55,980 nucleotides of DNA from Candidatus Zambryskibacteria bacterium RIFCSPHIGHO2_02_FULL_43_14 (GCA_001825315.1 MHVR01000023.1:1-55980), one strand, 5' to 3'. Positions 1 through 55,980 are shown, numbered from the stretch's first letter. Numbers and translations: made by a program. The notes: generated by a model not told the origin, from the sequence alone.

Positions 1-236
1 TCAAGAACGAGGACGAACTCGTCGACGCTCTGGGTACGTTTCCGGCTGAAGCGATGGTCGTAGCGGCACTCAATGACAAGCCGCTACAATCGTTTGCCTG
101 CGACAACGCCCGGCCTGGACAAAAAATCGTCCAGCTCGGCTGGGGCAAAGAGCCGGAAGTTCCGCGCTCTGACCCACAGTACGTCCGCTTGCCAATCATG
201 GGAGAAGCAATCGTGAAGCTTCTCCTCGAAATCTAA
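1..236 (+). CDS. hypothetical protein, C-terminal fragment (frame open to window edge)
   Basis: Frame 3 is open from nt 3 to TAA at 234-236. High-GC codon usage like the rest of the 1-4 kb island. No domain recognised. Confidence 0.5.
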   Translation, partial: KNEDELVDALGTFPAEAMVVAALNDKPLQSFACDNARPGQKIVQLGWGKEPEVPRSDPQYVRLPIMGEAIVKLLLEI

Positions 237-257
237 CAACTTTCAAGGAGACGTGCG

Positions 258-698
258 ATGAAGATTCTCGTGATCGAAGACACGCCAAAGCACCGCGACG
301 ACGCCAAGCGATTCTTCGCTGGAGAGAGTGGTGTCACAGCCATCTACTCGTCGGACTGGGGCGGCGCCAAGCGCTTCCTTGAGGAAAAGGGTAAGGTGGA
401 CGGAGTGATCTCCGACATCTACTTTCCCTATCTCAACGATTCAATCTGGAGCGAGCCTGAACCAGTTGGTGTCTACGTGATGATACTCTGCAGGGAACGT
501 AGAATTCCCTGCGTGCTCAACACTGACGGCAACCACCACGGCAAGCGACTCCAGTGGATCCACGAGATGATCGGCCATCTCGGCCTGCCGGCGATGATCG
601 ACACGGGCCAAGACAAGGCCGAGTCGAAAAATTGGTCGCAAGCGTTTGAAGCGCTCAAGACCATCATCGCTCCCTCCAACCATCCCGATCAGAAATGA
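258..698 (+). CDS. stand-alone CheY-like receiver (REC) domain protein
   Basis: 146 aa. MKILVIEDT (acidic pair after beta1), DGVISDIYFP (phospho-acceptor Asp position), VLNTDG (conserved Thr), alternating beta/alpha pattern. AAGGAG lies 7 nt upstream of the ATG. Confidence 0.6.
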   Translation: MKILVIEDTPKHRDDAKRFFAGESGVTAIYSSDWGGAKRFLEEKGKVDGVISDIYFPYLNDSIWSEPEPVGVYVMILCRERRIPCVLNTDGNHHGKRLQWIHEMIGHLGLPAMIDTGQDKAESKNWSQAFEALKTIIAPSNHPDQK

Positions 699-703
699 TC
701 GGG

Positions 704-743
704 TCCTACCAAAGCAATTAAGTTCTTGATTGTTTTGGTGGGA
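704..743 (+). repeat. island hairpin element, copy 1 (TCCTACCAAAG-N18-TTTTGGTGGGA)
   Basis: Inverted 11-nt arms at 704-714 and 733-743 around an AT-rich, partly self-complementary loop. Followed by a second hairpin GGGACA..TGTCCC (740-755) and GTTCTTTGAGGA (760-771). Confidence 0.8.
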
Positions 744-771
744 CAATTGTGTCCCGACTGTTCTTTGAGGA

Positions 772-981
772 ATGACATACATGACAGAAGAAACGTGGAA
801 AACTGGATGGAAGCCAGAATACGCAGGTCTTCCGTTTCGGGTAATCGTGTTCGCATCGTTCTTCGGTCCCAAACCTGACCAGACCACACTTGAACTTTTG
901 GAAGAAGTTCAACGTCTCTCTGACTCGGAAATGTCAGAGCTCTTCGCTTCTGCCTTCAAAGCCTTTCAGGCAATGAATTAA
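772..981 (+). CDS. small hypothetical protein (69 aa; start more likely ATG 781)
   Basis: ORF track. GAGGA at 767-771 abuts ATG 772 but is 9 nt from in-frame ATG 781. No homology recognised. Confidence 0.45.
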   Translation: MTYMTEETWKTGWKPEYAGLPFRVIVFASFFGPKPDQTTLELLEEVQRLSDSEMSELFASAFKAFQAMN

Positions 982-1013
982 GAAGCCTATGGGCGAACGC
1001 AATTTGTTCGCCC

Positions 1014-1054
1014 TCCCATCAAAGTTTTTAAGTTTATTAAAAATTTTGATGGGA
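1014..1054 (+). repeat. island hairpin element, copy 2 (TCCCATCAAAG-N19-TTTTGATGGGA)
   Basis: Arms at 1014-1024 and 1044-1054. Preceded by GC hairpin GGGCGAAC..GTTCGCCC (991-1013). Followed by hairpin 1051-1069 and GTTCTTTGAGGA (1072-1083). Confidence 0.8.
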
Positions 1055-1124
1055 CGAATGGTTCGTTCCATGTTCTTTGAGGAGACAAAAGATGTAAACA
1101 GCAAGAGATTCTTTCGACGTTTAC

Positions 1125-1481
1125 TTGGAAGAAAAACGGCAACAGGAACTACCACTTCACGGTGATAATCCGGCGCCGTTCAAACAGCCGTTTCTCGTCA
1201 TCACGTTCAAGGATCAGAAGATCCACGGTGACGTTGCCGACGGTTGGCATGTCGACGTCGACGGCCAGATCGAGAAGTATCTCGAAGGATTCACGGAGCG
1301 CACTCTCGAGTGGTGTCCACCATTCAACAAGATGGATCGGGCGACACCGCTTCTGAGAAGCATCGTCGAGTACTTCGCAAGCCGTGGCATGGAGGTTGCG
1401 AAGGTTGCCACGTACGTCGGATCCGCCGGCCCATCACACATTCTGAGGAACGGTGCGTTCTTCAAACGCATGAAGTTCTAG
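1125..1481 (+). CDS. hypothetical protein (118 aa, TTG start)
   Basis: ORF track. The frame opens after TAA 1095-1097, and the only start-like codon before residue ~69 is TTG 1125, with no SD. The sequence looks protein-like but the family is unknown. Confidence 0.45.
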   Translation: MEEKRQQELPLHGDNPAPFKQPFLVITFKDQKIHGDVADGWHVDVDGQIEKYLEGFTERTLEWCPPFNKMDRATPLLRSIVEYFASRGMEVAKVATYVGSAGPSHILRNGAFFKRMKF

Positions 1482-1518
1482 AATGTCCATAACCGGAGCG
1501 TGTACTACATGCTCCGGT

Positions 1519-1560
1519 TCCCACCAAAGTTATTAAATCTAATTGATGATTTTGGTGGGA
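1519..1560 (+). repeat. island hairpin element, copy 3 (TCCCACCAAAG-N20-TTTTGGTGGGA)
   Basis: Arms at 1519-1529 and 1550-1560. Preceded by hairpin CCGGAGC..GCTCCGG (1493-1517). Its GGGA again starts a second stem (GGGAAATG 1557-1564 / CATTTCCC ~1596-1603). Confidence 0.8.
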
Positions 1561-1943
1561 AATGGCTGACAATTAATGGTACTTGCCAGCCTAGTCATTT
1601 CCCTTAAGGCTACTACGGTAGCGGCGGGTCTAACCAACCTTGCTCAACAAATTGGTCGCGCATATTTCAGAAAGTGGCTGCTGAGATATATGCGGGGAGA
1701 TGATGAATCATCTCCCTCCTGAAATTTTCGCGGTCCAGGCAGGTGCAGAGGCCAGAGGACTAATTGAGTCGTCTTAGGAATTCCCTAAGGCGGATGGTTC
1801 CGAGTAATCGGGACAACCGGATCGCTGCGCGAGCGGCTAAGTTGGAAACCAAGGAGGTGGCCAACGCTCGCAATGCCAAAGATTCGGACTGCACACTTGT
1901 TCTAGTCTGGGTCAGATTAACCACCTGACCCAGTTTTATTTTT
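1561..1943 (+). ncRNA. candidate structured non-coding RNA or long structured 3' UTR (class unknown)
   Basis: No ORF of 60 aa or more on either strand across 1482-2052. Several clean hairpins: GGGAGATGA-tgaa-TCATCTCCC ~1695-1716, CTTAGG..CCTAAG ~1773-1789, and GGTT-CCGA-GTAA-TCGG-gac-AACC with a GNRA loop ~1796-1818. Ends in an intrinsic terminator at 1907-1943. A 48-aa ORF (1576-1722) without SD is an alternative reading. Confidence 0.35.
1907..1943 (+). terminator. rho-independent terminator
   Basis: Perfect 9-bp stem CTGGGTCAG (1907-1915) / CTGACCCAG (1925-1933) followed by TTTTATTTTT. Confidence 0.8.
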
Positions 1944-2005
1944 CAAGGTCTTTTATTAGCTATTAGCAGAGTGTTTTTCTGTAATATAAAGCAATAAACG
2001 TCAAG

Positions 2006-2034
2006 TTGACATAGAACATAAGCCATGATACAAT
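2006..2034 (+). promoter_or_regulatory. sigma70-type promoter TTGACA-N17-TACAAT (with TGn extension)
   Basis: -35 TTGACA at 2006-2011, 17-nt spacer, -10 TACAAT at 2029-2034 preceded by TGA. Located just upstream of ORF 2053/2098. Confidence 0.65.
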
Positions 2035-2052
2035 CCGCCACGGATATGTGGA

Positions 2053-2835
2053 ATGGATTACCCATTTTCACACCCGCTCTTTGAAAGGAGACTACATGTG
2101 AATGATAACTTCCGTGGGCACTTGGAAGAGTGCCTCAAGCACTTGACAGTGCGTCTACTTGAAGCGTATCCGAAAGGATCGAAGAGTGCCGCAAAGGCAC
2201 GACAGCCGATGGCAGAATTTTGTGGAGTTCAAATCCACGCTATCACTGGCTGGCTCTATCGCTCCGATCACCTGCCGCGGGGCGAGAAGTACATCAAGCT
2301 TTTGTGCTTTCTCGAAATCAACGGCTACAAGGTGATTGAATTCGAGCGACTGTCACAGAAGTGTCGCAACTTCGCCAGGCTCATTGGTTTCGGGCTGATC
2401 ACAAGTCAGCAAGCTGCCGAAATGCTTGGTTATTCCGGGGTTTCTCCAACTTCTACCCTCTTTGAAATGCTTCGAGGTAATGAAAGAGCAAGTAGCAAGG
2501 TAGAGGAGAAGCTTTGGGATATGTGGAAGGTCCGAAAAGACAAGCTGGACGAGACTATCGAGAAGGTGACTGAAAAGTATCGGTTGAACTTTTCGAAAGT
2601 ATCGAATCAGTCGTTGATGTCGATGAGTGAAAATCTCGTGGCAACGAACAACAACGGCTGTCCCAGAGATGGGGTGGTCGACATCATGCAAGGCCTGCTT
2701 CGTTTACTCGATAGTGGGGTCTTGCAGGATCTCTCCGATACTGATTGGACTGCTCTTCGTGGTTCAAGCAGTATGATTCTTCGACTTTCTTCCCATCTCA
2801 GCACTCTCAGTGCTAGGCTTGTAAGGCCTGGCTAA
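2053..2835 (+). CDS. hypothetical protein with XRE-like helix-turn-helix segments (start possibly GTG 2098)
   Basis: 260 aa. MAEFCGVQIHAITGWLYRSDHLPRGEKYIKL and ITSQQAAEMLGYSGVS..LFEMLRG resemble HTH_XRE. AAGGAG at 2085-2090 sits 7 nt before in-frame GTG 2098. Confidence 0.5.
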   Translation: MDYPFSHPLFERRLHVNDNFRGHLEECLKHLTVRLLEAYPKGSKSAAKARQPMAEFCGVQIHAITGWLYRSDHLPRGEKYIKLLCFLEINGYKVIEFERLSQKCRNFARLIGFGLITSQQAAEMLGYSGVSPTSTLFEMLRGNERASSKVEEKLWDMWKVRKDKLDETIEKVTEKYRLNFSKVSNQSLMSMSENLVATNNNGCPRDGVVDIMQGLLRLLDSGVLQDLSDTDWTALRGSSSMILRLSSHLSTLSARLVRPG

Positions 2836-2845
2836 AGGAGGTTCT

Positions 2846-3100
2846 ATGAATGTGCTTCGCTGGGTGGTGCAGAAAGTCGTTCGTGACGGCCAGCACGGCC
2901 CATACGCGGTAGCGAGAGACGAGAAGCTTGGATCAGTAACTTTTTCCCTCACGCCAGATGTCTGGCTGGAGAACAGGTTACCGGAATCCGGGTCAGAAGT
3001 GGTCTTGGAGGATTTCCAGAAGAAGCGTGCTGGGTGGCGCGCAATGTCTGCTCGGTTTTTCAGACCGGAAGACATCGACAACAACAAGCAGAGCGCCTAA
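2846..3100 (+). CDS. hypothetical protein (84 aa)
   Basis: ORF track. AAGGAGG lies 4-5 nt upstream of the ATG. No family recognised. Confidence 0.5.
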   Translation: MNVLRWVVQKVVRDGQHGPYAVARDEKLGSVTFSLTPDVWLENRLPESGSEVVLEDFQKKRAGWRAMSARFFRPEDIDNNKQSA

Positions 3101-3119
3101 GGGCGCGGAGCAAACAGCC

Positions 3120-3938
3120 ATGAGCATTCAGATCTCGGATCGTTCGGTGACACGCAATGTCAAGGATCTCAGTTTCGACTTCTTCGTCCGCAAGGAACTC
3201 AACGCGGACTGGGCGCTTCAGCTCGGCGATCTCGTCGAGCATGGCGTCGAGATGGATCCGATCTACATCACCCGTGAGAACAAGGTGATCGACGGTCGGC
3301 ATCGCATGGAGGCGCACGAGCTCGCCAAGAGGCCGGAGATCAAATGCAAGATCGTTGAAGCCGACAACGACATCGAGCTCGTCGTCTTCGCACTCAATCA
3401 GAACTTGGGAGGGTCGCTGCCGCCGAGCAAGGGCGACATCGAGCACACCATTCAGGATCTCCTGAACCGTGGTGTGCCGAAAAAGCAGCTCGCGGAGACA
3501 CTCTCGATGCTGCCAGGCAAACTGGTGAGGAAGTACCTCAATGACGTCGAGAGCCAGATGCAGCGCGCGAAGCTGCAAAAGGCAGCCCTCGCCATCTCGA
3601 ACGGCGGACTGACGGTGCCGAAGGCGGCCATTCAGTACGACGTGCCCGAGGACCAGCTCAAAGCGCTCTTGACCACACGGGTCAAGGGCAAGACCAAGCG
3701 CGGGATCGAGGAGATCCAGCGGCAGCTCTCGGTGTCGTACAAGTCGCTCGGTCAACGCAACTCCGCGACCGTGCGCCGGCTTCTGGACGCGTACCAGGAC
3801 GGTGACGTTTCGCACAAGCAGGCGATGAAGATCTTCACTCATCTGGATCACCTGATCAAGGTATCGAGTCGCAAGGCCACCGAGTGGCGCAAGCGGTTCG
3901 AGGCGATGGAAGCGCCGAAGAAGATCAACGCCGCGTAG
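3120..3938 (+). CDS. ParB/Srx-fold (ParB N-terminal nuclease-like) domain protein
   Basis: Track ORF 2958-3938 trimmed to ATG 3120 (GGAG 9 nt upstream), which removes the overlap with ORF 2846-3100. Motif PIYITRENKVIDGRHRMEAHEL matches the DGxHR core of ParB-like domains. The helical C-terminal half may bind DNA. Confidence 0.65.
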   Translation: MSIQISDRSVTRNVKDLSFDFFVRKELNADWALQLGDLVEHGVEMDPIYITRENKVIDGRHRMEAHELAKRPEIKCKIVEADNDIELVVFALNQNLGGSLPPSKGDIEHTIQDLLNRGVPKKQLAETLSMLPGKLVRKYLNDVESQMQRAKLQKAALAISNGGLTVPKAAIQYDVPEDQLKALLTTRVKGKTKRGIEEIQRQLSVSYKSLGQRNSATVRRLLDAYQDGDVSHKQAMKIFTHLDHLIKVSSRKATEWRKRFEAMEAPKKINAA

Positions 3939-3964
3939 TCTCAATCAGTACAGTAGCAATACAA

Positions 3965-4011
3965 GGAGAGATGGTGGATACCTTGAATGGTAAATCCCAT
4001 CTCTCCTTTTT
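3965..4011 (+). terminator. rho-independent terminator after the ParB-like gene
   Basis: GGAGAGATGG (3965-3974) / CCATCTCTCC (3997-4006) followed by TTTTT. Confidence 0.75.
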
Positions 4012-4096
4012 CGTTTATTTCTTTTTAGCTAGTAACCAATCTGGCTCCGGAATAAAAGTGGCGGGGAACGCTTTTGTCTATCTGAATTCCGAACAA

Positions 4097-4188
4097 AGCG
4101 GAGGAGGTGAGATTCGAACTCACGATGGGTTTTAGCCCATGCCGCATTTCAAGTGCGGTGCCTTCAACCTCTCGAGCCACTCCTCCGC
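4097..4188 (-). tRNA. tRNA-Ser (anticodon UGA)
   Basis: Reverse complement folds as acceptor GCGGAGG/CCTCCGC, anticodon stem CCGCA/TGCGG with loop CTTGAAA, long variable arm and T-loop GTTCGAATC. No encoded CCA. Confidence 0.9.
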
Positions 4189-4296: not shown

Positions 4297-4503
4297 ATGA
4301 GAAATGTCATTAATATATCTCTTCCGCAAGAACTGACTAAAGTGGTGAAAAGAGAAGTAAAAACCGGTAACTATGCCAGCGTAAGCGAATTCTTTCGCTA
4401 TCTTCTACGCAACCACAGACTAGCTGAAGAGCTTAATAAAGCTAAGAGGGATTTTGAAATAGGAAAAGGAAAGGTGCTACGTTCGCTTAAAGATCTGCGC
4501 TGA
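4297..4503 (+). CDS. ribbon-helix-helix (CopG/ParD-like) type II antitoxin
   Basis: 68 aa. The N-terminal beta-strand plus helices pattern (INISLPQELTKVVKREVKTGNYASVSEFFRYLLR) is typical of RHH antitoxins. A RelE/ParE-like ORF follows 8 nt downstream. Confidence 0.7.
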   Translation: MRNVINISLPQELTKVVKREVKTGNYASVSEFFRYLLRNHRLAEELNKAKRDFEIGKGKVLRSLKDLR

Positions 4504-4510
4504 CTTTTTC

Positions 4511-4768
4511 TTGATGAAAATTCTTTACTTACCGAAATTTAGAAGAATTTATAAGAGAATACCTGAAAATATAAAAGATCTCGCTGAAAGGAAAGAAAAA
4601 ATCTTTCGCAATAATCCTCTTGATCATAGTTTAAAAACTCACAAACTTCACGGAGAGCTTGGCAACTTCTGGGCTTTCTCAATAAATTACCAATACAGAA
4701 TCATATTTGATTTTGCCGACAAAGACACCGTAAGATTTTATAGCATAGGCAAACACGATATCTATTAA
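4511..4768 (+). CDS. RelE/ParE-superfamily type II toxin
   Basis: 85 aa. KTHKLHGELGNFWAFSINYQYRIIFDF..DTVRFYSIGKHDIY matches the RelE/YafQ C-terminal pattern. Probable start is ATG 4514. Confidence 0.75.
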   Translation: MMKILYLPKFRRIYKRIPENIKDLAERKEKIFRNNPLDHSLKTHKLHGELGNFWAFSINYQYRIIFDFADKDTVRFYSIGKHDIY

Positions 4769-8102: not shown

Positions 8103-8366
8103 GTGAAAATAATACTTGTGCTGACAGACTCCAGGAGAAAAAGTCTAGTTTTTGTTACAGATGAATTAGAAGCAATTTCTCTTGAGGCATATATCCGTTC
8201 AGTTATTGAAGGTTGGAGAAAATATATCGATCTTACTCATAAGCAGGCAATTCTAGCAACTTTATACTCACTTTATAAAAAACCGCACAACAAACCAGAA
8301 CCAAGCGACCGTGGCCTTCAAATTGCAAGTGAATTCTACGAGTTCGCCAAAGAATGGCTCAAATGA
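8103..8366 (+). CDS. hypothetical protein (87 aa, GTG start)
   Basis: ORF track only. No family recognised. Confidence 0.4.
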   Translation: MKIILVLTDSRRKSLVFVTDELEAISLEAYIRSVIEGWRKYIDLTHKQAILATLYSLYKKPHNKPEPSDRGLQIASEFYEFAKEWLK

Positions 8367-8626
8367 TCGAGAAATATACAATGAAGTTTTTTGTATTTTT
8401 TATAGTGGCAGGGCTTATTTATTTCGTGATGATTTTATTTTATGGAATGCCGTTACACGATTTCAATCTATGGCGATTGAATATGCTTTATGGAAATGTC
8501 GAAGAATATCATCCTAAAAACTCAAAAATGTTAATAAAAAAGAAATATTTGGGAGGACCAGATGAGCATAGTTCACAGCAATGTAATTACGTCGTGGGGG
8601 AGATTAGATCTTCTACTTTTGGGTGA
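8354..8626 (+). CDS. hypothetical small membrane protein (90 aa)
   Basis: ORF track. One clear TM (FFVFFIVAGLIYFVMILFYG). Overlaps the previous ORF by 13 nt. Confidence 0.4.
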   Translation: MAQMIEKYTMKFFVFFIVAGLIYFVMILFYGMPLHDFNLWRLNMLYGNVEEYHPKNSKMLIKKKYLGGPDEHSSQQCNYVVGEIRSSTFG

Positions 8627-8661
8627 TTATCGTTGTGACAATTAACTCGAAAGTTTGCGAA

Positions 8662-9726
8662 TTAGTCTTGAATTTTTCTGTACCTGGTAGTTCTTCCTTG
8701 ACCAATTCTCTTAACCTTCTTCAGACGCATCAAAACCACGAGAGATTGAGAGACAGTAGGCCTTGCAACTTTGGTTGCTTTCGATATTTCTCCCGGAGTA
8801 GCTTCGGATACATCTTCAAGATACTGCCACACAATAAGTTGCTTGGGGGAGAGGAGGAGTTCGATGTTTTCTCGTGAGAGCAGATCAATCGCTTGTTCTG
8901 CCTGAAGCAAGGTGATTTTCAGGAAAAATTCAGGCCAAGCTAAAATATTTTCTTTATCAGTCTTGATTGTTTTCTGACTTTTGCGGAGAGCTATGTAATA
9001 ATCAGCTTTATTGTCCTCAACCAATTTTTCATGAGAGATGTATGGCACATATGGATAGTCGCTATGAAGCATTAAGAGATTGGTCAGGATGCGGGAAATA
9101 CGGCCGTTGCCGTCCTGGAAAGGATGGATGTTTAGGAGCTCGACCAGAAAATTGCCAATGATGAGAAGCGGATGAAACTCTTTAGCAGCTAGAGCATCTT
9201 TGGTCCAATCTACGAGTTCTAACATTTCTTTGGAAGTAAGATATGCGGGAGTGGTATCAAAAAGAACACCTATCGACTGACCTTTTTCATCAACCATATG
9301 CACCTTGTTTTCAGTTTTCTTGTACTCACCTCTATGGAGTTTGTCTTTCTCGACATATTTCAGAAGCTCACGATGAAAATGTTTAATGGTACTTTCGGAA
9401 AATGGGATAGCTCTCCAAGATTCAAAAACATTATTCAGGAGTTCATAGTATCCCTTCACTTCCTGCTTATCTCGGTTCGCAAATTTCTCCATGGAAAGTC
9501 CTCGCATTAGTTTTTCCACATCTTCGTCAGAGAGCTTAGCACCTTCAATGCGAGTCGAAGCGCCGGTCGAAGTGATGAGAGTGGACTTTTCCAGGCGCCC
9601 TAAGGCCTGCGGGTTGAGTGTAGCGCCCCCTACCCATCTACCCTTAATTTCATCTATGCGATTTAAAAGTTCCCAGATAGACTGTGGAGGGTCTTTGATT
9701 CTTTTGTTGAATTTGTAATTAATCAT
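8662..9726 (-). CDS. Fic family protein (class II, N-terminal inhibitory motif) with C-terminal winged-helix domain
   Basis: 354 aa. Fic motif HPFQDGNGRISR, N-terminal STRIEG matching the (S/T)xxxE(G/N) inhibitory helix, C-terminal wHTH-like VSEATPGEISKATKVARPTVSQSL. Confidence 0.85.
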   Translation of the reverse strand: MINYKFNKRIKDPPQSIWELLNRIDEIKGRWVGGATLNPQALGRLEKSTLITSTGASTRIEGAKLSDEDVEKLMRGLSMEKFANRDKQEVKGYYELLNNVFESWRAIPFSESTIKHFHRELLKYVEKDKLHRGEYKKTENKVHMVDEKGQSIGVLFDTTPAYLTSKEMLELVDWTKDALAAKEFHPLLIIGNFLVELLNIHPFQDGNGRISRILTNLLMLHSDYPYVPYISHEKLVEDNKADYYIALRKSQKTIKTDKENILAWPEFFLKITLLQAEQAIDLLSRENIELLLSPKQLIVWQYLEDVSEATPGEISKATKVARPTVSQSLVVLMRLKKVKRIGQGRTTRYRKIQD

Positions 9727-10087
9727 AAAGCTTGGATTGAATCCAATCTAATACTCTACATGTATGAGATTATATTAGATTATGCTAAAAGTGCAAGCCG
9801 AACCGAAAAATCATTTTTAAAAAGTGAGTATTTAAGGCATATTTTCAGGTACGGTTGGATTCCTAGCGCCCGCACCATGTTGGAAAAGTCAATGCCTCGC
9901 CCCGCCTTCGGCGGGTCTCGGCGACCAAATCGTATGGATTTTTCGGGGCAAACACGAATTGGCGATTTCGCATTTTAGGGAAAGAAAATTTTTTAATCCT
10001 TTTAATCATAAATAGATAATTATGCATTATAATAAGTTAGAGAAAGGTCGGTCGGCTTTTCTATTAAAATCATTAAATTCATAAACT

Positions 10088-10621
10088 ATGAAACAACTTG
10101 ATCCAAAAGCAGTCTGGTTATTCTTCATTAGTTTCGTTTTGCGTGCGTTTATTCCAATCATATTTTTGAGCATTTATGGTGCAGTAATTTTGAGCGATCT
10201 TGGCAAAAGTCTTGATAACGGTGGCGAGTTTTCATTTGGTTTTCTAAATTGGTTGTGGATTATTATTCCTGTCTTCCTAGTTTTGTGTTTTGTTTGGGCT
10301 AAACTCACTTACCACTTTTATCGCTATGAACTTACTGATGCAGGTTTTCGCAAGGAGCTTGGGGTTATCTACAAAAAGTATGTAACTATTCCTTACGACC
10401 GAATTCAAAACGTTGACATCAATCGTGGCATCTTGGCTCGCATTCTTGGACTGTCTGACCTTAATATCCAAACAGCTGGTATGAGCGCAACGGTATCACG
10501 TTACGGCGTAATGGGCGGTGGTGCAGAGGGGAGATTGCCCGCAGTTTCTATGGCAGTCGGTGAACAACTTCGAGACGAACTAATTCAGCGCACTCGCCAA
10601 TCTAAAAATCAGGGACTCTAA
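10088..10621 (+). CDS. membrane protein with bacterial PH domain (bPH2/YdbS-like)
   Basis: 177 aa. Two TM helices then YRYELTDAGFRKELGVIYKKYVTIPYDRIQNVDINRGILARILGLSDLNIQTAG, typical of bPH_2. Confidence 0.8.
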   Translation: MKQLDPKAVWLFFISFVLRAFIPIIFLSIYGAVILSDLGKSLDNGGEFSFGFLNWLWIIIPVFLVLCFVWAKLTYHFYRYELTDAGFRKELGVIYKKYVTIPYDRIQNVDINRGILARILGLSDLNIQTAGMSATVSRYGVMGGGAEGRLPAVSMAVGEQLRDELIQRTRQSKNQGL

Positions 10622-10951
10622 ATTTTTCAAAGAATTCTGCCGCCCCATACTTCGCCAAGGCTTCATAGGGTAATGCAAAGCAAAACTTGAAATCCGTCTG
10701 AACGAATTCATTTGGGCAGGTTGTCATTCGTGCGGTTCCCCGCCTGCGGCGGGGAAAGCGGTTCGGACTAATTCAAGAATACTGCACATTAGTGAACTTT
10801 TTGAGTACAAATCCTGATGTGAGAATTTGCTTTCTCTTGGCAATATCACCATTTTTGAATTCCTCTCTGACTCTTTCTGTAAAGGTGAGAGTACTTTCAA
10901 GCCGGATAAGTCAATCATCTATCCTCTTATCATCTCTGGTTCATTAATAAA

Positions 10952-10986
10952 AAACAATCCACTGATTTTTCAATGGATTGTCTCAA
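10952..10986 (-). terminator. rho-independent terminator for gene 11022-11483
   Basis: On the minus strand: CAATCCAtTG..CAgTGGATTG stem followed by TTTTTT. Coordinates approximate. Confidence 0.6.
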
Positions 10987-11021
10987 AACTAATTTAATTA
11001 GTTTGTGTGGACCCAATATCC

Positions 11022-11483
11022 TTATGGATGAATCTGCGAACCTTGTCCTCCAATTGAGTAAACGTACGGTGTTGCTCCATATGCGTCATCGGGGCCAAAA
11101 TTGTCTCCCCAAATCTCAACATATCCGTTGGAACATTTTGTGTTATTAAAGACCGTCCCAAAATCAAGATAAGGCGTCTCTCCATAGTCACCAGACCATT
11201 TTACGAGTATTTTGCATGTACCGTAATCCGCAGGATAACCAAACAATGTTGCTGGACCATTTAGTGTATATATTCCCTGCTCCTCACCAGAATTACCGAT
11301 GGGCTTACAACCATATATATCAGCTCGTGTTCCTGTTCCAAGAAGACCGTAAGGATCAGTTACAATCGTACTGCAATCTATGTCCGCGCTTGGATTGGCC
11401 GCGAACGCTACACTTGCTATAGCAAACATCGATATAATCGCTGCGGATGCAATAGCACCACCTACAATTTTATTTTCCATCAT
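11022..11483 (-). CDS. secreted hypothetical protein (signal peptide, Cys-containing)
   Basis: 153 aa. N-terminal hydrophobic signal ending AFA-ANP. Four Cys. No family recognised. Confidence 0.6.
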   Translation of the reverse strand: MMENKIVGGAIASAAIISMFAIASVAFAANPSADIDCSTIVTDPYGLLGTGTRADIYGCKPIGNSGEEQGIYTLNGPATLFGYPADYGTCKILVKWSGDYGETPYLDFGTVFNNTKCSNGYVEIWGDNFGPDDAYGATPYVYSIGGQGSQIHP

Positions 11484-11662
11484 AATCGTATTTATTTATT
11501 ATTAATAAAGTCTTTTTCACCGTTTTTATGGTGATCAACTTGTTCAGTATATATATTACACATGGAGAATACAAGAAAACCAATTGTTTGTTAGTTCTTA
11601 GACTTTCTACGTGATCCGATATCAACAAAGAGGTTCTAACGTCATACAATAAACGGCATAAT

Positions 11663-12823
11663 TCATTTTCTTTGTTTGGCAAGTTTCTTTACAGCACTAG
11701 AAACAGCAAGCACTACTTTCTTATCAAACGGATCGGGAATAATTCTCTTTGCCGTCGGTTTCTTGACTACCGAAGCGAGGGCCAACGCTGCCGCAATTTT
11801 CATATTATCGGTAATTTGTGTTATGCGGGATTCTATTGCTCCTTTAAAAATTCCCGGGAAGGCGAGGACATTATTGATTTGGTTTGGAAAATCAGAACGG
11901 CCGGAAGCGACAACGGCTGCTCCGCCTCGCTTGGCCTCGCTTGGCATAATTTCGGGCACGGGATTAGCCATAGCGAAGATGATCGCCCGCTTTGCCATAG
12001 TGCCGACGTCAGAAACTTTGAGCAGATTGCCCTTTGAGACTCCAATAAAGACATCAGCGTCCTTAAGGGCTTCGAAGAGCGAACCCGAGAGATTATTTCC
12101 ATTAGTGATTTTGAGGATTTCTTTTTTTACAGATGTAAGGTCATGTCGTTTTTTACTTACAATTCCTTGACTATCGCAGACTACGATGTGGCGTACCCCA
12201 TAGAGATAGAGGAGTTTCGCAATGGCCGTTCCGGCCGCACCCGCGCCGTTTATCACCACTCGTACCAATTCTTTTTTCTTTCTGACTACTTTCAATGCGT
12301 TGATAAGTCCGGCAAGAACCACAATAGCGGTACCGTGTTGATCGTCGTGCATCACGGGAATAGGAAGATTCTTTTTTAAACGTGTTTCGATTTCGAAACA
12401 GCGCGGCGCGGAAATATCTTCCAGATTAATGCCACCGAAGGTTGGCGCGATGGCTTTAACCGTAGCCACTATCTCATCAGTGTTCTGGGTGGAGAGCACA
12501 ATCGGGAAGGCGTCAATGTTGGCAAAACGTTTGAAGAGTACAGCCTTGCCTTCCATGATAGGCAGGGCCGCTTCGGGGCCAATATTACCTAATCCCAAGA
12601 CTGCCGAGCCGTCCGAAACAATGGCCACGCCATTTTTAGTTGAAGTTAAATCGTAGGCAAGTTTCTTGTTTTTCGCTATTTCTAGCGCTGGTCCGGCTAC
12701 TCCCGGTGTGTATGCTATTGCCAAATCTTCGCGATTCCTAACAGGAAATTTGCTAATAACTGCAATTTTCCCGCGAGCTTTCCGGTGGGCTTCGATACTT
12801 AATTTTTGATAGTTTTTTTCCAT
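11663..12823 (-). CDS. NAD(P)-dependent malic enzyme (short form)
   Basis: 386 aa. LAIAYTPGVA, VAIVSDGSAVLGLGNIGPEAALPIMEGKAVLFK and GINLEDISAPRCFEIE are malic-enzyme signatures. Confidence 0.9.
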   Translation of the reverse strand: MEKNYQKLSIEAHRKARGKIAVISKFPVRNREDLAIAYTPGVAGPALEIAKNKKLAYDLTSTKNGVAIVSDGSAVLGLGNIGPEAALPIMEGKAVLFKRFANIDAFPIVLSTQNTDEIVATVKAIAPTFGGINLEDISAPRCFEIETRLKKNLPIPVMHDDQHGTAIVVLAGLINALKVVRKKKELVRVVINGAGAAGTAIAKLLYLYGVRHIVVCDSQGIVSKKRHDLTSVKKEILKITNGNNLSGSLFEALKDADVFIGVSKGNLLKVSDVGTMAKRAIIFAMANPVPEIMPSEAKRGGAAVVASGRSDFPNQINNVLAFPGIFKGAIESRITQITDNMKIAAALALASVVKKPTAKRIIPDPFDKKVVLAVSSAVKKLAKQRK

Positions 12824-12842
12824 TTAAGATAAAAAATGATAT

Positions 12843-13211
12843 TCAAAATAAGTCTGATACTCTCGATAATGCAAGGAGATTCATCTCATTATCATTATAG
12901 TTGTCAATATGCGAGGTAATACACAAAAATGCAATAATCGCACCCTTTACTACAAACCACATTCTAGGAAATTGATTTGGACGCAGACCAGAATTTGGGA
13001 CAATGAGTTCAATTTTCCAAAGTGTCCAAATATCATTCTGTGAAATGCGATGAAGTTTTCCCGGTCCAATTGCTGGTTGTGGGTTTGTAGGGTGGAATTG
13101 TTTTTCACATAACCTCTCAAATGCGGAAAGGCCATCATCTATATTGTGAAATCGCCGCCCTAGGGCGGCGATTTCTTTTTGAATGCCGTCGTGGTAAAGG
13201 AATTGAATCAT
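12843..13211 (-). CDS. putative toxin partner of the Panacea antitoxin (RelE/ParE-like fold suspected)
   Basis: 122 aa. ATGA overlap with the upstream DUF4065 gene. The C-terminal pattern KLHRIS..WTLWKIEL..G..PRMWFVVKGAIIAFLCITSH resembles RelE/HigB-type beta-sheet cores. Confidence 0.5.
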   Translation of the reverse strand: MIQFLYHDGIQKEIAALGRRFHNIDDGLSAFERLCEKQFHPTNPQPAIGPGKLHRISQNDIWTLWKIELIVPNSGLRPNQFPRMWFVVKGAIIAFLCITSHIDNYNDNEMNLLALSRVSDLF

Positions 13212-13699
13212 GAATCACCAAAATCTGTACCACGATAGTATGTCAGTTCGTAAGGAATCTCTTTTCGCAACTCTGTGCCAATATATGGGGCTTCAGCGTG
13301 GGACAGTTCTTCTAATTGCTTACCGTTGAGATGGCCGTATTTTATGACAATTCTGTCAAGCATTTTCTTCTCTTCCTCATTAAAGACAGAAATATCAGGT
13401 TCGACGATACATTTGTACACTTCAGTTGGATTATATCCTACGCGCTCCTCGATCTGCTCAATACTGAGCATTTTTTTCTTTACCATTTCAGCAGTAATTT
13501 CTTCCAACGCAGAGGGTACGGGACCCATGGGAAGCGCACAATAAATATCGCCAGTTATTAACTTCTGACTTTTTTCATACAAGTCAAAATCCGCAAAATA
13601 GAGTAATTTCGCTAACTTTTTCTTACCGCGCACCTCGCCTTTTAACTTCCGGCACAAATACAGGATGGCATTCTGGTACTGTTTCCGGCGTAGGGACAT
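13208..13699 (-). CDS. Panacea-domain (DUF4065, SocA/GepA-like) antitoxin-type protein
   Basis: 163 aa. KKLAKLLYFADFDLYEKSQKLITGDIYCALPMGPVP matches the DUF4065 core. Confidence 0.75.
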   Translation of the reverse strand: MSLRRKQYQNAILYLCRKLKGEVRGKKKLAKLLYFADFDLYEKSQKLITGDIYCALPMGPVPSALEEITAEMVKKKMLSIEQIEERVGYNPTEVYKCIVEPDISVFNEEEKKMLDRIVIKYGHLNGKQLEELSHAEAPYIGTELRKEIPYELTYYRGTDFGDS

Positions 13700-13769
13700 A
13701 TCGCTTATATGATACTAGATATTACGATGATGAACAAGCATCTGAACATGTTGTAAGTTTTTTATTTAG

Positions 13770-13851
13770 TGGGCACGGAGGGATTTGAACCCTCAATCCT
13801 TGCGGCACACGATTCTGAATCGTGCGCGTATACCAATTCCGCCACGTGCCC
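13770..13851 (-). tRNA. tRNA-Leu (anticodon CAG)
   Basis: Reverse complement: acceptor GGGCACG/CGTGCCC, D-loop AATTGGTAT, anticodon loop TTCAGAA, long variable arm, T-loop GTTCAAATC. Confidence 0.9.
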
Positions 13852-48185: not shown

Positions 48186-48208
48186 CATAACAGACAAAAT
48201 GTAGTGAT

Positions 48209-48808
48209 ATGTCAGAACTTATCAAAAAGCCAGAGAAGCTAGCGTCTGCCATATATTTGGTCACAAGCTTTTTTGATGACCAAGAACCGCTGAAATGGAG
48301 ACTTAGAACTTTATCCACCGATCTAGTTTCCGAAAAGATAAGAGACAAATCTAGCATAGCTGTGGAAGCGTTGTCTCTTTTCTTCATAGCCAAGACTGCT
48401 GGTCTGATTTCTGAAACAAATTACGATATTTTAATCAGCGAATTATTAAGATTGAAACAGGAAGCAGAAAAATCTTTGAACATAACGTCTCTTCGTGAGA
48501 TAACCACGGACAGGGGAATTTTGTCCGAACCGCAGAAAATCGGATACTTAAAGGACAGTTCTGCCGATAAGCTTGCCGAGAAGTCGAGATTAAAAGAATT
48601 TGGAGCTGTCTCAGTGAAAAAGAATAGTCGCCAGAGTATCATTATTGCTATTCTAAAACGTAAGAAAGAGGTCATGATAAAGGACATTTCTCCCTTAATT
48701 AGTGGTTGTAGTGAAAAGACGATTCAGCGTGAGCTTTCGGCTATGGTGCGGGCAGGCATCTTGAGAAAGGTGGGGGAGAAGCGCTGGAGTCGTTACTTTC
48801 TTGCCTAG
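48209..48808 (+). CDS. putative transcriptional regulator (helical N-terminal domain + C-terminal winged HTH)
   Basis: 199 aa. C-terminus RQSIIIAILKRKKEVMIKDISPLISGCSEKTIQRELSAMVRAGILRKVGEKRWSRY is DeoR/MarR-type wHTH. Confidence 0.65.
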   Translation: MSELIKKPEKLASAIYLVTSFFDDQEPLKWRLRTLSTDLVSEKIRDKSSIAVEALSLFFIAKTAGLISETNYDILISELLRLKQEAEKSLNITSLREITTDRGILSEPQKIGYLKDSSADKLAEKSRLKEFGAVSVKKNSRQSIIIAILKRKKEVMIKDISPLISGCSEKTIQRELSAMVRAGILRKVGEKRWSRYFLA

Positions 48809-49032
48809 CCGAAGTTTTAGTGTAGGGTGGCCTTGCCTAATAGTCATAAAGTGTGTAATATGTGGTTATCCACAGCGCATTACAATGCTTTTTGCAGGAT
48901 ATCCTTTATAATTTAAAGGCTTGCCAGCAAAGGCGTTATCCGTTGTTGGCAAAATTAATACCCGCGACGCAACCCCGCCAATTATTTAGAAATATTGGGG
49001 AAGCGTATGCGCATTAGAAAATAAATTAACAA

Positions 49033-51018
49033 ATGACAAAACAAAGAATTGCAAAGATTGCCGGAATTGCAGTAGGTGCAACTGTTGCCTTTGGCTCTTT
49101 AGTGCCAATGGTAGGCGCTGTAACGATCGCTGAACTCCAGGCTCAAATCAATGCACTTATGGCACAACTCGCTTCTCTTCAAGGAGGATCTGTGTCTACA
49201 GGGATGACTGCTTGCACATTCACACGTAGTTTGACCATAGGTTCAACTGGCGCTGATGTTACGTGCTTGCAGAATTATCTAACTGGTACCGGCCACTTCA
49301 CCTTTAGTGGTGGATCAACCGGGTACTTCGGTTCTGTTACTCAAGCAGCAGTAGCGGCTTGGCAAGCAGCCAATGGCATTGCTCCAGCAGTAGGTTATTT
49401 CGGTCCTATTTCACAGGCGAGATACAGTGCTGTTGCTGTGACGACTGTTCCAGGGACGACTGTTCCAGGGACGACTATACCTGGTGGCACAGTTGGTCTT
49501 AGTACTCCTGGTGTAGAAGGCACCGTTACTGTTTCTCTCAATCCGTCTCCCGCTTCAGCAAAGCTGTATGAAGGAGATTCAAACAAAGATGTTCTCGGCA
49601 TCAAACTTGAAGCCAAGACCTCTGACATCAGGATTGAAAGAATCAAATTGAAGCTTGATGAGAATGACACTACATCAACTTCAGACACAGACTTCTACAG
49701 GAAGATTGCTAGTAGGGTCTACATCAAGGACGGTTCAGCCGTGCTTGGTTCTGCAGATCTCAACATCAATACTGTAGTCAAGGATGGTACGAGTTACTAC
49801 ATCACAGTTGCAGGTTTGGGTTTCATTGTTCCTAAAAATACAACGAAAGTTCTCACCGTTGCTCTTGACGCTATGAGCGCTTGGGACGACACATTCAACG
49901 GCGATGCTTGGACTGTTACCGTTCCTGTAGACGGTGTTCGCGGAGTGGACGGCGCAGCTGTGAACCAATACGGTCCGGCTACCGCCTTCAACCGCGACTT
50001 CACTTCCAATGGTGAACTTGCGGAAAGCGCTACTCTGGCAGTTTCCCTCAATTCTGGTAGCTCACTCGCTAACCAGGTTATCTGTACTTCAAGTACGGAT
50101 GAAGATGAGTGTGATGAACTCGAGCTCATGAAAGTTGATTTCAAGGCCGAGAAAGACGATGTTACTCTTACCGACCTCGTAGTTGACATCAACATGACCG
50201 GTGGTGACACAGCCACAGCAACTACCGCTTGGCTATATGACGGCTCTACTCTCGTAGGTTCGGCAACCATTGTCGAACTCACGGGTGCAAACAGTGCCAC
50301 CTTCGATGACATAGACTTTGTCGTTCCGAAGGATATGACCAAAACCCTTTCGGTCAAGGTTGATATCCGGGACACAGATGCCACTACTAATAGCTTTGCA
50401 GCTGACATTGACACCGATGACGTTACTGCCGAGAATGCACAAGGCACAGGCATTACCGAATCCGGTTCTGCAGCTGGTAGGGTTATTGAGGTCAGAAAGG
50501 TTGGTCCCCAGATTACTCTGGTTTCCAAGTCGATTACTACCGACGGTGTTCCACAAAACGACACTGGTCCAACCAGTGCAAACAGAAGCACCTCTACTTT
50601 GAGTGCGACCTTCAATCTCAAGATTAAGGCAGTGGGAGGCGACCTCACTTTCGGTAGGGGTGGTTCTAGTACGTCTCTCTTCGCAACTACCACAGGTTCC
50701 TTCGCTATCTACCGCAACGGTACTTACGACGGCACAATCGGTAGCTCCGCTACTTCGACTTCGTACACTATTCCTTCCGCCTGTACTTCAGTCGGTACGC
50801 AAAGCTGTACGTTGGCCGAAGGTGCTGAAGTCACTATCCCTGTCACCTTCCAGATTCTTGGTAGGCAGGTAGTTACGGGCAGCACTCTAACTGTTGGTAG
50901 TCTCTATGCTGTTGGTTTCGAAGGATTCACTTGGCATTCAGCAGCTGCTGATACCCAAAGGACTACCTTCATGGCTACGAGCACAGACTGGAGAACAGCT
51001 GACGTTTCCTTCCCGTAA
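49033..51018 (+). CDS. secreted cell-surface protein with N-terminal peptidoglycan-binding domain and long Thr/Ser/Gly/Val-rich beta region (S-layer-like)
   Basis: 661 aa. Signal/anchor, coiled coil, PG_binding_1-like block (GSTGADVTCLQNYL...GYFGSVTQAAVAAWQAANGI...GYFGP), VPGTT repeats, then low-complexity beta sequence. Confidence 0.7.
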   Translation: MTKQRIAKIAGIAVGATVAFGSLVPMVGAVTIAELQAQINALMAQLASLQGGSVSTGMTACTFTRSLTIGSTGADVTCLQNYLTGTGHFTFSGGSTGYFGSVTQAAVAAWQAANGIAPAVGYFGPISQARYSAVAVTTVPGTTVPGTTIPGGTVGLSTPGVEGTVTVSLNPSPASAKLYEGDSNKDVLGIKLEAKTSDIRIERIKLKLDENDTTSTSDTDFYRKIASRVYIKDGSAVLGSADLNINTVVKDGTSYYITVAGLGFIVPKNTTKVLTVALDAMSAWDDTFNGDAWTVTVPVDGVRGVDGAAVNQYGPATAFNRDFTSNGELAESATLAVSLNSGSSLANQVICTSSTDEDECDELELMKVDFKAEKDDVTLTDLVVDINMTGGDTATATTAWLYDGSTLVGSATIVELTGANSATFDDIDFVVPKDMTKTLSVKVDIRDTDATTNSFAADIDTDDVTAENAQGTGITESGSAAGRVIEVRKVGPQITLVSKSITTDGVPQNDTGPTSANRSTSTLSATFNLKIKAVGGDLTFGRGGSSTSLFATTTGSFAIYRNGTYDGTIGSSATSTSYTIPSACTSVGTQSCTLAEGAEVTIPVTFQILGRQVVTGSTLTVGSLYAVGFEGFTWHSAAADTQRTTFMATSTDWRTADVSFP

Positions 51019-51078
51019 TCCTTCTAAGGATTGCTAAGGTCTACGCCCTAGTCGTAGAAACCCCTCGACAAAGCTCGG

Positions 51079-51120
51079 GGTAAATCAAAAAACCGCCTTC
51101 AGGCGGTTTTTTGATTTACC
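51079..51120. terminator. bidirectional intrinsic terminator (19-bp perfect stem)
   Basis: GGTAAATCAAAAAACCGCC-ttca-GGCGGTTTTTTGATTTACC. Confidence 0.8.
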
Positions 51121-51267
51121 CAGCGTAGCTTTTTTTGACCCTCCGTAACCTTGTGCGAAGGGAGTAGCGAAGTTGGGTTGTCCACAGATTGTTTATTTTT
51201 TTATGGAGAACTGTGGGATAATTGTCATGTTAGTAGTGTAAATAAATAATAATAATTTAAGTTAAAT

Positions 51268-51699: not shown

Positions 51700-51718
51700 T
51701 CCTGATTAATTCTAACTC

Positions 51719-55088: not shown

Positions 55089-55314
55089 CTGAATGCCATC
55101 ATGTGCAGTAATTAGACGGGGGTCTTTTGTGCATATAGATGGAAGAAAATGTTCTTGCCGTCCGATTGTAGGATAGCGAGAGCGAAGCTAAATGAAAGTG
55201 TTGATTTCATTTAGCAGGATAGAACCCCGTAAAATCGCTTTGCGATCACGGGGTAAGTAAACCGCGTGGACGCAGTGGCGTCTTTACGCGGGTGGTTTTT
55301 AAGTTTCCTAATAG

Positions 55315-55980
<666 letters not shown>

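Follow-up and report, generated by a model that had tools for sequence, protein, structure and literature searches.

The DNA analysed in this work (the window) is a stretch of 55,980 nucleotides (nt) from Candidatus Zambryskibacteria bacterium RIFCSPHIGHO2_02_FULL_43_14 (GCA_001825315.1, MHVR01000023.1:1-55980), a member of the Candidate Phyla Radiation (CPR). Window positions 1-4060 are the right-hand 4 kb of an accessory region, referred to below as the island, which is rich in guanine plus cytosine (GC) and ends close to a tRNA-Ser(UGA) gene. The island carries two sets of genes: an array of small-gene cassettes with approximately 80-nt modules made of hairpins and a Shine-Dalgarno (SD) sequence, and an operon of three genes (p245, p84 and p272) with a ParB-like last product. 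A preliminary description of the first 4096 nt, made from the sequence alone, had taken them for a foreign segment of plasmid- or phage-like content integrated at the 3' end of the tRNA gene. The results presented here indicate that the region was probably acquired horizontally, but not as an integrase element that targets the tRNA. The genes and features of the window are listed below (aa, amino acids; ORF, open reading frame; L followed by a number denotes a contig or locus used for comparison).

1..236 (+): 3' two-thirds of the p108 gene (108 aa), which starts at L001 9653, 90 nt before the window; partner of p146
258..698 (+): p146, divergent receiver (REC)-like protein; SD sequence AAGGAG 8 nt upstream
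702..781 (+): module m3, with an 18-bp hairpin (~706-743), GGGAC..GTCCC, a U-tract and an SD sequence (TGTTCTTTGAGG); cmsearch score 79.2 bits
781..981 (+): p66/p69 small-gene cassette of no known family; ORF with the SD sequence GAGGA
1012..1093 (+): module m4; cmsearch score 74 bits
1125..1481 (+): p118 small-gene cassette; TTG start, no SD sequence of its own
1517..1599 (+): module m5, which shares the hairpin but differs in its 3' part; cmsearch score 60.4 bits
1600..1940 (+): ORF-poor array tail (sequence and six-frame translation); 90% identical in L189
2006..2034 (+; L001 11749-11777): sigma-70-type promoter of the p245-p84-p272 operon, TTGACA, 17 nt, TACAAT, with TG; 11 of 12 consensus positions
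2098..2835 (+): p245; GTG start, SD sequence AAGGAG
2846..3100 (+): p84, small conserved domain protein; SD sequence AAGGAGG
3120..3938 (+): p272, ParB/KorB/Noc-like, predicted DNA-binding protein
3963..4020 (+): intrinsic terminator of the same operon (inverted repeat I20), 12-bp perfect stem followed by a T-rich tract (TTTTTCGTTTATTTCTTTTT)
4055..4065 (no strand): right end of the putatively transferred unit, at window 4060 (L001 13803), where homology between L001 and L189-L192 ends
4098-4186 (-): tRNA-Ser(UGA) of "type B" (ARAGORN and Rfam)
4297-4768 (+): ribbon-helix-helix (RHH) antitoxin and YafQ/RelE-like toxin pair (Pfam), on the 5' side of the tRNA, inside the indel described below and missing in the sibling contig L017

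Results

Base composition and Shine-Dalgarno sequences

GC content, computed in sliding windows and over whole segments, is 52.3% at nt 1-3950 and 42.2% at nt 4200-55980; one-kb windows outside the island range from 35 to 50%, with a mean of 42.2 and a standard deviation of 2.7. The drop falls between ~3950 and ~4100. The switch within ~150 nt given in the preliminary description is thus real and lies where it was placed, but the contrast had been overstated (55-58% against 30-42%). The tetranucleotide profile singles out the same segment, with a distance to the remainder of 0.40 for nt 1-4000; the other 4-kb windows mostly give 0.12-0.18 and reach 0.27 near 48-52 kb. GC content at third codon positions (GC3) is 0.68 in nine island genes and 0.41 in 19 native genes (range 0.32-0.45), and at second codon positions (GC2) it is 0.38 in both sets. 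The excess therefore lies almost wholly at third codon positions, a mutational or codon-usage signature with no amino-acid effect.

GGAG, AAGGAG(G) or GAGGTGAT is found 5-10 nt before the start codon in eight of the nine island genes, whereas among 50 native ORFs (90 aa or longer) only two have an SD sequence at the same position, even as a 4-mer (Fisher p = 1.8e-7). This bears out the earlier statement that the island starts (258, 781, 2098 as GTG, 2846 and 3120, all correctly placed) are SD-rich and the native starts SD-poor; the terminator that had been seen behind the ParB-like gene is also present, as a hairpin at 3963-4008 with a T-run. Only 48% of Parcubacteria were found to have an anti-SD motif (PMC9297842), which fits the few native SD sequences and makes the persistence of SD-led cassettes across the CPR a real puzzle. 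A candidate second island at window 48200-52300 (GC up to 50%, tetranucleotide distance 0.27) was rejected: the rise in GC is caused by a 661-aa protein with a peptidoglycan-binding domain (GC2 0.52, native GC3 of 0.43), and three neighbouring ORFs have no family.

Extent of the region, empty site and second genomic context

The complete region, with native genes on both sides, is contained in L001, a 98,958-nt contig from the European Nucleotide Archive (ENA), on which a position minus 9743 gives the window coordinate. Its features outside the list above, and the right-hand landmarks in L001 coordinates, are:

L001 6115-6870: Zip transporter gene
L001 6991-7731: trmB-like gene, low GC
between the trmB-like gene and the AT-rich spacer: ORF-less stretch of ~300 nt
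L001 8051 (-) and 8188 (+): two divergent promoters, each with 11 of 12 consensus positions, in an AT-rich spacer
L001 8218-8890 (+): GC-rich ORF-less leader of ~660 nt between the array promoter and the first module
L001 13681: end of the island genes, of which p272 is the last
L001 13841-13929: tRNA-Ser

The GC-rich part measures ~5.6 kb (L001 about 8190-13803). Together with the trmB-like gene and the ORF-less stretch it forms a unit of 6.9 kb (L001 6898-13803) that is shared with a second genomic context (L189-L192), in which the same island, with a 98% identical p272, is followed on the right by CYTH-domain and L33 genes of 37% GC. Identity between L001 and the second context rises stepwise along the unit, from 79% in trmB to 85% in the ORF-less part and 95-97% at the DNA level in the GC-rich genes, which is the pattern expected from recent exchange of the GC-rich part between different species.

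A contig of a sibling species, L017 (aa identity 89% for Zip and 90% for PilM; DNA identity 85-86%), lacks the island at this site. Its positions 1-1140 align with L001 5642-6851 and its positions 1271-2831 with L001 14517-16076 (window 4774 onward); only 130 nt, holding one tRNA-Ser(UGA), lie between the two blocks, so that the order is Zip, a different tRNA-Ser(UGA), DUF5652 and RuvX. The indel that separates L017 from L001 measures 7.67 kb and contains trmB, the island, the window tRNA-Ser and the RHH/YafQ pair. A PilM-based search for related loci in GTDB genomes returned nothing, and no within-species empty site was found among 22 contigs with the exact RuvX.

Several observations concern the left part of the unit. 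Between trmB and the island, a candidate structured RNA of ~290 nt (L001 7735-8022, minus strand; folding z-score -4.5) has a promoter with 11 of 12 consensus positions (8051-8023), an intrinsic terminator with a 15-bp stem (7770-7735), no ORF and no Rfam match; it is missing in the sibling and 85% identical in L189. The leader of the array (8218-8890, plus strand) has a folding z-score of -4.0. A ~40-nt element of the leader region, GGGATRTTATGCAGTCCTGGSAACAGAAAATGC, occurs twice (L001 8718-8758 and 9450-9491), and a 39-nt stretch of the leader (8831-8868) matches L015 6376-6414, which adjoins another GC-rich cassette of small genes. Two more CPR genomes (L057 7668-10441 and L058 8291-10513) have a p146 homologue, preceded by small genes of 59, 84 and 106-107 aa, beside a trmB-family gene that is transcribed divergently, an arrangement also found in L001 and L189; trmB may be paired functionally with the p146 gene set.

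Assembly integrity

The window was identified as contig MHVF01000001.1 of GCA_001823715.1. The depth of the island and of its native flank was compared in four groundwater and soil metagenomes; the public runs were read as contigs, for which rare forms and exact junction frequencies are uncertain. Island/flank contig depths are about 8/8, 45/40, 45/40 and 9/10 and thus co-vary one to one over a five-fold range. A chimera, in which a high-GC organism had been joined to the CPR genome at a shared tRNA-Ser sequence, would have in its favour that Logan contigs break at the tRNA-Ser; they do so because the tRNA sequence is common to many abundant organisms (depth 500-9000x). The junction is nevertheless crossed at genome-like depth by a unitig of 126 nt, which has its ends in the island terminator (3997) and inside the tRNA (4122), and from there further, overlapping unitigs reach into the flank. 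The junctions are also present in at least five independent assemblies from ENA, the Joint Genome Institute and NCBI (left junction in L001-L003, right junction in L001 and L004-L007), which come from different samples and pipelines, and L001 spans the island entirely. In all 10 places shown for the identical RuvX (22 contigs read), its left side is island sequence, the toxin-antitoxin pair or a contig end. An assembly chimera is therefore refuted for practical purposes.

The tRNA-Ser gene, the toxin-antitoxin pair and the search for an integrase

The tRNA-Ser(UGA) gene itself was correctly recognized in the preliminary description. At the same site the sibling L017 and a more distant relative, L018, carry a tRNA-Ser(UGA) of another type ("type A"); in a three-sequence alignment types A and B are under about 70% identical, with many mismatches and two gaps over the whole length. 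Because the window tRNA differs from the relatives' gene at the same site, it lies inside the indel and is not its target: it is a xenologous replacement of the type A gene. The type B sequence is common to many abundant community members, with unitig depths up to ~9000x as compared with 8-45x for this genome, and many different flanks join it at 4094/4095 and 4193.

The idea of integration at the tRNA 3' end finds no support at the borders, as the shared unit stops at window 4060, 38 nt short of the tRNA at 4098. An integrase and a second attachment (att) site had been supposed to lie out of view, but the whole element is present on L001, and neither an integrase among the called genes and ORFs of L001 6850-14520 nor a remnant of one in the six-frame translation (the ORF-less parts are full of stops) was found; the borders share no direct or inverted word of at least 10 nt. 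In blastn, nt 1-4096 had no match among 50,697 phage and 72,556 plasmid records. Rfam returned only tRNA and 23S (window at the gathering threshold; L001 7000-14200 at E <= 1), and no island protein matched the PADLOC defence-system models or NCBIfam. The plasmid- or phage-like content that had been proposed is thus not supported; both gene sets recur as chromosomal cassettes among CPR housekeeping genes (see below).

On the other side of the tRNA, adjacent small genes for an RHH and a RelE-fold protein make up a pair of the type II toxin-antitoxin kind: the first matches Pfam RHH_1 with 24.8 bits (cutoff 20.5), and the second comes just below the cutoff of YafQ (26.8 bits, cutoff 30) and, concordantly, of HigB and ParE. 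The toxin gene was not called in several contigs of the same species (L200, L203-L205), and a second RelB/YafQ pair is found at L001 2923-3497.

The array of small-gene cassettes and its modules

The array stands behind the near-consensus promoter at L001 8188, to the left of the window, and contains p60, p80, p108, p146, p69, p118 and strain-specific other genes. Five modules of ~80 nt are present in L001, before p60, p108, p69 and p118 and, the fifth, after p118; p80 and p146 are preceded by an SD sequence only. Each module consists, in this order, of an 18-bp hairpin (TCCCAYCAAAG...CTTTGRTGGGA), a small hairpin (GGGAC..GTCCC), a U-rich tract and an SD sequence, the last within TGTTCTTTGAGG. 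The tail of the array closes with a further hairpin, GGGTCAG...CTGACCC (arms at ~1903-1909 and 1925-1931), and a T-run.

The module is also present in related arrays that come from different organisms and studies (L189, L193, L194). When 14 copies were folded with RNAalifold, 12 of the 18 stem pairs showed compensatory double changes; one position is G.U in all 14 copies and U.G pairs are frequent. As such pairs would be A.C mismatches on the opposite strand, the structure belongs to the sense strand, either as RNA or as top-strand single-stranded DNA. With a covariance model, the copies score 54-80 bits in sense and 18-36 bits in antisense orientation; at E <= 1 the model has no match in 29 control loci from IMG/VR (L072-L100), and in other CPR loci it gives only weak matches (E 0.06-0.2; L058, L030 and L047). 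A scan of IMG/VR with a degenerate palindrome gave more than 116 single matches, one per contig, which were taken as chance and used only as controls.

The modules are breakpoints for the deletion, gain and re-ordering of cassettes. A deletion joint from 732 to 1550, with 11 nt shared, removes p69 and p118 and is the dominant form in run X6; L189 carries the same hybrid module. The reciprocal joint, 1538 to 726, is present in run X3 at ~1/10 of the depth. Loose ends at 746, 991 and 1028 lead into other sequence, and an extra 114-aa gene is inserted at module m1 in L004, L189 and L190. p69 and p118 are both missing in L189-type strains as well as in the dominant form of run X6, and a p118 homologue (89% aa identity) in L193 is placed upstream rather than downstream of p108-p146.

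The p108-p146 pair recurs in L055, L193 and L194 with 70-76% aa identity. In L055, a genome of 39% GC, the pair forms a unit by itself: 0.8 kb with 54-59% GC, equipped with a TTGACA/TATAAT promoter of its own, a TGTTCTTTTGGAGG leader and a terminator; GC3 of the pair is 0.76-0.80 as compared with 0.34-0.43. A further cassette that is self-contained and rich in GC (49-53%, where the genome has ~38%) was seen at L015 5890-6960, 2 kb upstream of the ParB-like operon of that genome; its two small SD-led genes are accompanied by a TTGACA/TATAAT promoter, a TGTTCTTTT..GGAGG leader and a terminator. GC is likewise high in purH, downstream of the same operon (GC3 0.58). In the window, the SD sequence of m4 leads into a start-stop mini-ORF, ATG TAA (1092-1097), 27 nt before the TTG start of p118, and a mini-ORF of six codons is found at the homologous position in L193; translational coupling or re-initiation may be involved.

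The p245-p84-p272 operon and its distribution

In a survey of one genome per GTDB species, relatives of p272 were found in 35 loci, of which 33 are CPR-type contigs with the same gene order; in a few of the 33, p84 or p245 was undetected or cut off. The hosts include Zambryskibacteria, Lloydbacteria, Magasanikbacteria, Nomurabacteria, Uhrbacteria, Giovannonibacteria and Microgenomates. The most conserved gene is p84 (46-83% aa identity). The neighbours are varied housekeeping genes, among them those for RecR, L21, tRNA synthetases, GyrB, ribosome recycling factor and trigger factor, and an integrase adjoins the operon in only two of 30 loci.

The operon is GC-richer than its flanks in 27 of the 33 loci, by up to +0.19, and in high-GC hosts (L013) its GC content equals that of the host. 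Under identical start-finding rules, an SD sequence of at least 5 nt precedes 47 of 65 operon genes and 73 of 373 flank genes (p = 1.7e-16). No ParA-like gene was called next to the operon in the loci with listed genes (L011, L013, L015). In one locus the operon adjoins a canonical ParB gene, to which p272 is therefore additional.

Proteins encoded by the island

p272 consists of an N-terminal ParB/Srx domain, a helix-turn-helix (HTH) and long helices. It matches PHROG 1033 (E = 1.3e-6), and a DGRHR sequence, which is a GxxR-type motif, is invariant in 19 sequences. The HTH is matched by Pfam HTH_psq with 24.8 bits (cutoff 20.4), and the profile search gave LuxR-type HTHs. In the AlphaFold2 (AF2) model, with a mean confidence (pLDDT) of 85.6, the best Foldseek matches are the N-domain of pNOB8 ParB, the ParB proteins of M. 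xanthus and B. subtilis, Noc and KorB (E 2e-6 to 1e-4), and the alignment covers ~200-225 columns of ParB, Noc and KorB. The model, the profile match and the motif together confirm the earlier assignment: p272 has the ParB fold, with a ParB/Srx N-domain containing the GxxR-type motif and an HTH following it, as in ParB-type proteins. Distant homologues (25-39% identity) occur on viral contigs of IMG/VR. On one of them, a 145-kb contig (L063 4750-11200), a homologue of 29% identity lies directly downstream of genes for a terminase large subunit and a PAPS-reductase-like protein, and a radical-SAM protein and an endolysin are encoded nearby, so that the wider ParB-like family does occur in a genuine phage setting.

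p245 is all-helical with two HTH-like segments (AF2 pLDDT 85.5). In 28 homologues R6, G7, E11 and C42 are invariant, and H8, C12, H15 and C70 nearly so. It has no significant match in Pfam, PHROG or NCBIfam and no fold match in the Protein Data Bank (PDB; best Foldseek E = 0.88). None of these searches produced an HTH of the XRE type, and the earlier label "XRE-like" is not confirmed.

p84 has no Pfam or PDB sequence match. It is matched by 324 representative clusters; among the best 150, 54 are longer proteins (154-1590 aa), in nearly all of which the p84 domain lies within the first ~115 residues. This position near the N-terminus of many longer proteins suggests that p84 may be an adaptor or binding domain. 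In nine of ten proteins with an N-terminal p84 domain Pfam found nothing. The C-terminal regions of the p84-domain proteins (P0077-P0226) are diverse and without Pfam match; one protein of 1590 aa has cadherin-like and Ig-like domains, and P0077 and P0081 contain the p84 domain twice.

The p146 family is rare (12 clusters). Its profile matches response-regulator receiver domains with E = 2.7e-4, over residues 1-74 only, and E7/D8, D53, T89 and K124 are conserved. The earlier REC assignment is thus plausible in view of the profile match and the retained signature residues, but p146 remains below the Pfam threshold, and Response_reg was not detected.

At the far end of the window a 23S rRNA gene begins (55310-55980), with a protein-coding gene and not 16S upstream; the rRNA genes of this genome may be unlinked.

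Discussion

Origin of the region

The explanation that we prefer, and consider probable, is that the window begins in a horizontally acquired accessory region composed of two self-contained expression units, the array and the operon, and that it is not an integrase element targeting the tRNA. The foreign nature of the segment, as first proposed, is upheld by the empty site of the sibling, by the second context with GC-rich genes 95-97% identical and trmB only 79% identical, by the GC3 signature and by the exclusion of a chimera. The host is a low-GC, Parcubacteria-type CPR genome that makes almost no use of SD sequences. The DNA would enter by uptake and recombination, either homologous recombination in the flanks or recombination between modules, and not by site-specific integration. 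In the array, the hairpins would have a part in processing, stabilising or attenuating the polycistronic mRNA and in exposing the SD sequences, and the modules would incidentally supply the homology for cassette shuffling. The operon would encode a ParB-like DNA-binding protein together with an HTH partner and a small adaptor, with a regulatory or DNA-organising role like that of KorB or Noc, and the REC-like proteins would serve as signalling inputs.

Deviant composition and absence from close relatives, both found here, are marks of integrative islands, and the region could be the remainder of a tRNA-linked island or prophage that entered by a tyrosine integrase and later lost integrase and att sites. 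The sharp composition break near the tRNA 3' end, the toxin-antitoxin pair on the opposite side of the tRNA, and the distant p272 homologues beside terminase and PAPS reductase on the viral contig speak for such an origin. It is nevertheless very unlikely and largely refuted: the whole indel contains neither an integrase gene or remnant nor a border repeat, the unit ends before the tRNA, the entire tRNA and not only its 3' half differs, no phage or plasmid DNA matches, and the second context (L191) was seen without an adjoining tRNA within 2.2 kb. The genes might instead be long-resident CPR genes, with high GC3 and strong SD sequences kept by selection, for example for a special translation or expression regime. 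This would account for the GC content of the operon, which exceeds that of its flanks in 27 of 33 species-level genomes, for its SD sequences where flank genes have none, for the same contrast at a conserved RecR-L21 site (L011/L020, L013 and L188), and for the high GC3 of p108-p146 in L055. Against it stand the sibling, which has nothing between Zip and DUF5652 save its own different tRNA-Ser, and the near-identity of the GC-rich part between genomes that differ in trmB and in their flanks. Moreover, operon and host GC are equal in high-GC hosts, as expected if those lineages are the reservoir, and no highly expressed native gene of the window has elevated GC3. We regard long residence as unlikely.

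As regards the array, its modules could be folded single-stranded sites resembling the attC sites of integrons, with the cassettes moved by a recombinase encoded elsewhere, as in a cluster of attC sites lacking integron integrases (CALIN). In attC sites, R''-L''/L'-R' cores (RYYYAAC/GTTRRRY) and extrahelical bases are found within 57-141 nt. The small co-oriented genes without promoters of their own, of variable content and order, with one promoter in front of all, imperfect palindromes between them and breakpoints within the palindromes, agree with this idea; the low-depth reciprocal joint would suit an excised circle or a tandem duplication, and the strand-asymmetric G.T/G.U mismatches are those of sites that fold from one strand. 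Yet no intI-like gene is present within 20 kb of L001 around the array, and the 18-bp stems are near-perfect. The module alignments, inspected by eye with no attC model run, showed none of the attC features, neither extrahelical bases nor an RYYYAAC/GTTRRRY core pair at the stem base. The crossovers do not fall at a fixed position, one lying in the right arm (11 nt shared) and the other in the loop, which fits homologous recombination or template switching, and the constant spacing between the module and the SD sequence of the downstream gene points to a role in the mRNA. An integron-like origin of the array is thus improbable.

Several points weigh against the explanation that we prefer. The empty site in L017 is known from one 2.8-kb contig, and the island is present in every same-species contig read, so that no ongoing mobility was seen. 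The operon occupies the same RecR-L21 site in three lineages (L011/L020, L013, L188), and at this site in L011/L020 it is still GC-richer than its flanks (+0.08) and SD-led; not every copy of the cassette is thus a recent arrival, and part of its GC and SD character may be intrinsic. High GC and SD sequences could accordingly be features that the cassette maintains and not only marks of its recent arrival. For the array, the G.U asymmetry of the hairpins fits top-strand single-stranded DNA as well as RNA, and none of the public RNA-seq runs searched contains the island sequence. The mode of transfer is a proposal: the unit has no repeats at its ends, and its breakpoints are derived from only two contexts.

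Significance

Patescibacteria are reported to carry hundreds of genomic islands, most of them exchanged inside the group (PMC12455944), so that finding one is in itself nothing new. Neither the hairpin-delimited array nor the p245-p84-ParB-like operon was found described in the literature searched or in the Rfam, Pfam, PHROG, NCBIfam and PADLOC libraries. A wider proposal, which we put forward tentatively and hold to be possible rather than probable, is that operon and hairpin-delimited arrays belong to a CPR family of autonomous, GC-rich cassettes with strong SD sequences, exchanged and shuffled at the conserved ~80-nt module without a linked integrase. The family would then represent a cassette system of a new kind, different from integrons, that keeps its own composition and initiation signals in hosts whose own genes lack SD sequences. 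Genes gained, lost and re-ordered at a covarying hairpin/ribosome-binding-site module without an integrase would point to what may be a new path for gene flux in streamlined genomes, in organisms thought to depend on DNA uptake. The presence in many CPR classes of an operon that keeps high GC3 and strong SD sequences, although most host genes have no SD sequence, would also allow one to test whether SD-dependent initiation still works there, and what for. p245 and p84, conserved proteins of no known fold or function and constant partners of a ParB-like protein, offer a defined biochemical target in a group with almost no characterised regulators.

Comparison with known systems

The region resembles tRNA-associated genomic islands in being a deviant accessory block beside a tRNA gene that is missing in a close relative and has a toxin-antitoxin pair near by. 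Unlike those islands, it has no integrase and no att direct repeats, its border falls short of the tRNA by 38 nt, the tRNA gene has been replaced by a xenologue, and its second context is not beside a tRNA within 2.2 kb. In its ParB/Srx N-domain, DGRHR motif and HTH, p272 is like ParB-family proteins that act without ParA (RK2 KorB, Noc and pNOB8 ParB), from which it differs by a sequence identity of only 12-21% and by its constant partners p245 and p84, which belong to no known family.

The array shares with integron arrays and CALINs a single promoter, co-oriented small ORFs with imperfect palindromes between them, a content that varies between strains, and breakpoints in the palindromes. 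Unlike integrons and CALINs, it has no IntI within 20 kb; its palindromes are shorter (~42 nt) and near-perfect, lack attC cores and extrahelical bases, and stand directly upstream of genes, joined to the SD sequence, and the crossover position varies. Intercistronic RNA hairpins of polycistronic mRNAs are known from the RNase III sites of phage T7 and from repetitive extragenic palindromic (REP) sequences and bacterial interspersed mosaic elements (BIME). Like these, the modules are repeated, conserved intercistronic stem-loops of ~18-20 bp that are strand-specific and show compensatory changes; they differ in adding a second hairpin, a U-tract and an SD sequence and in doubling as recombination breakpoints. 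Finally, the operon and the p108-p146 pair are like the "morons" of phages: autonomous units with a near-consensus sigma-70 promoter, strong SD sequences, an intrinsic terminator and a GC content of their own, dropped between unrelated host genes. Unlike morons, they stand in the chromosomes of CPR bacteria and not in prophages, and the same units persist across many species.

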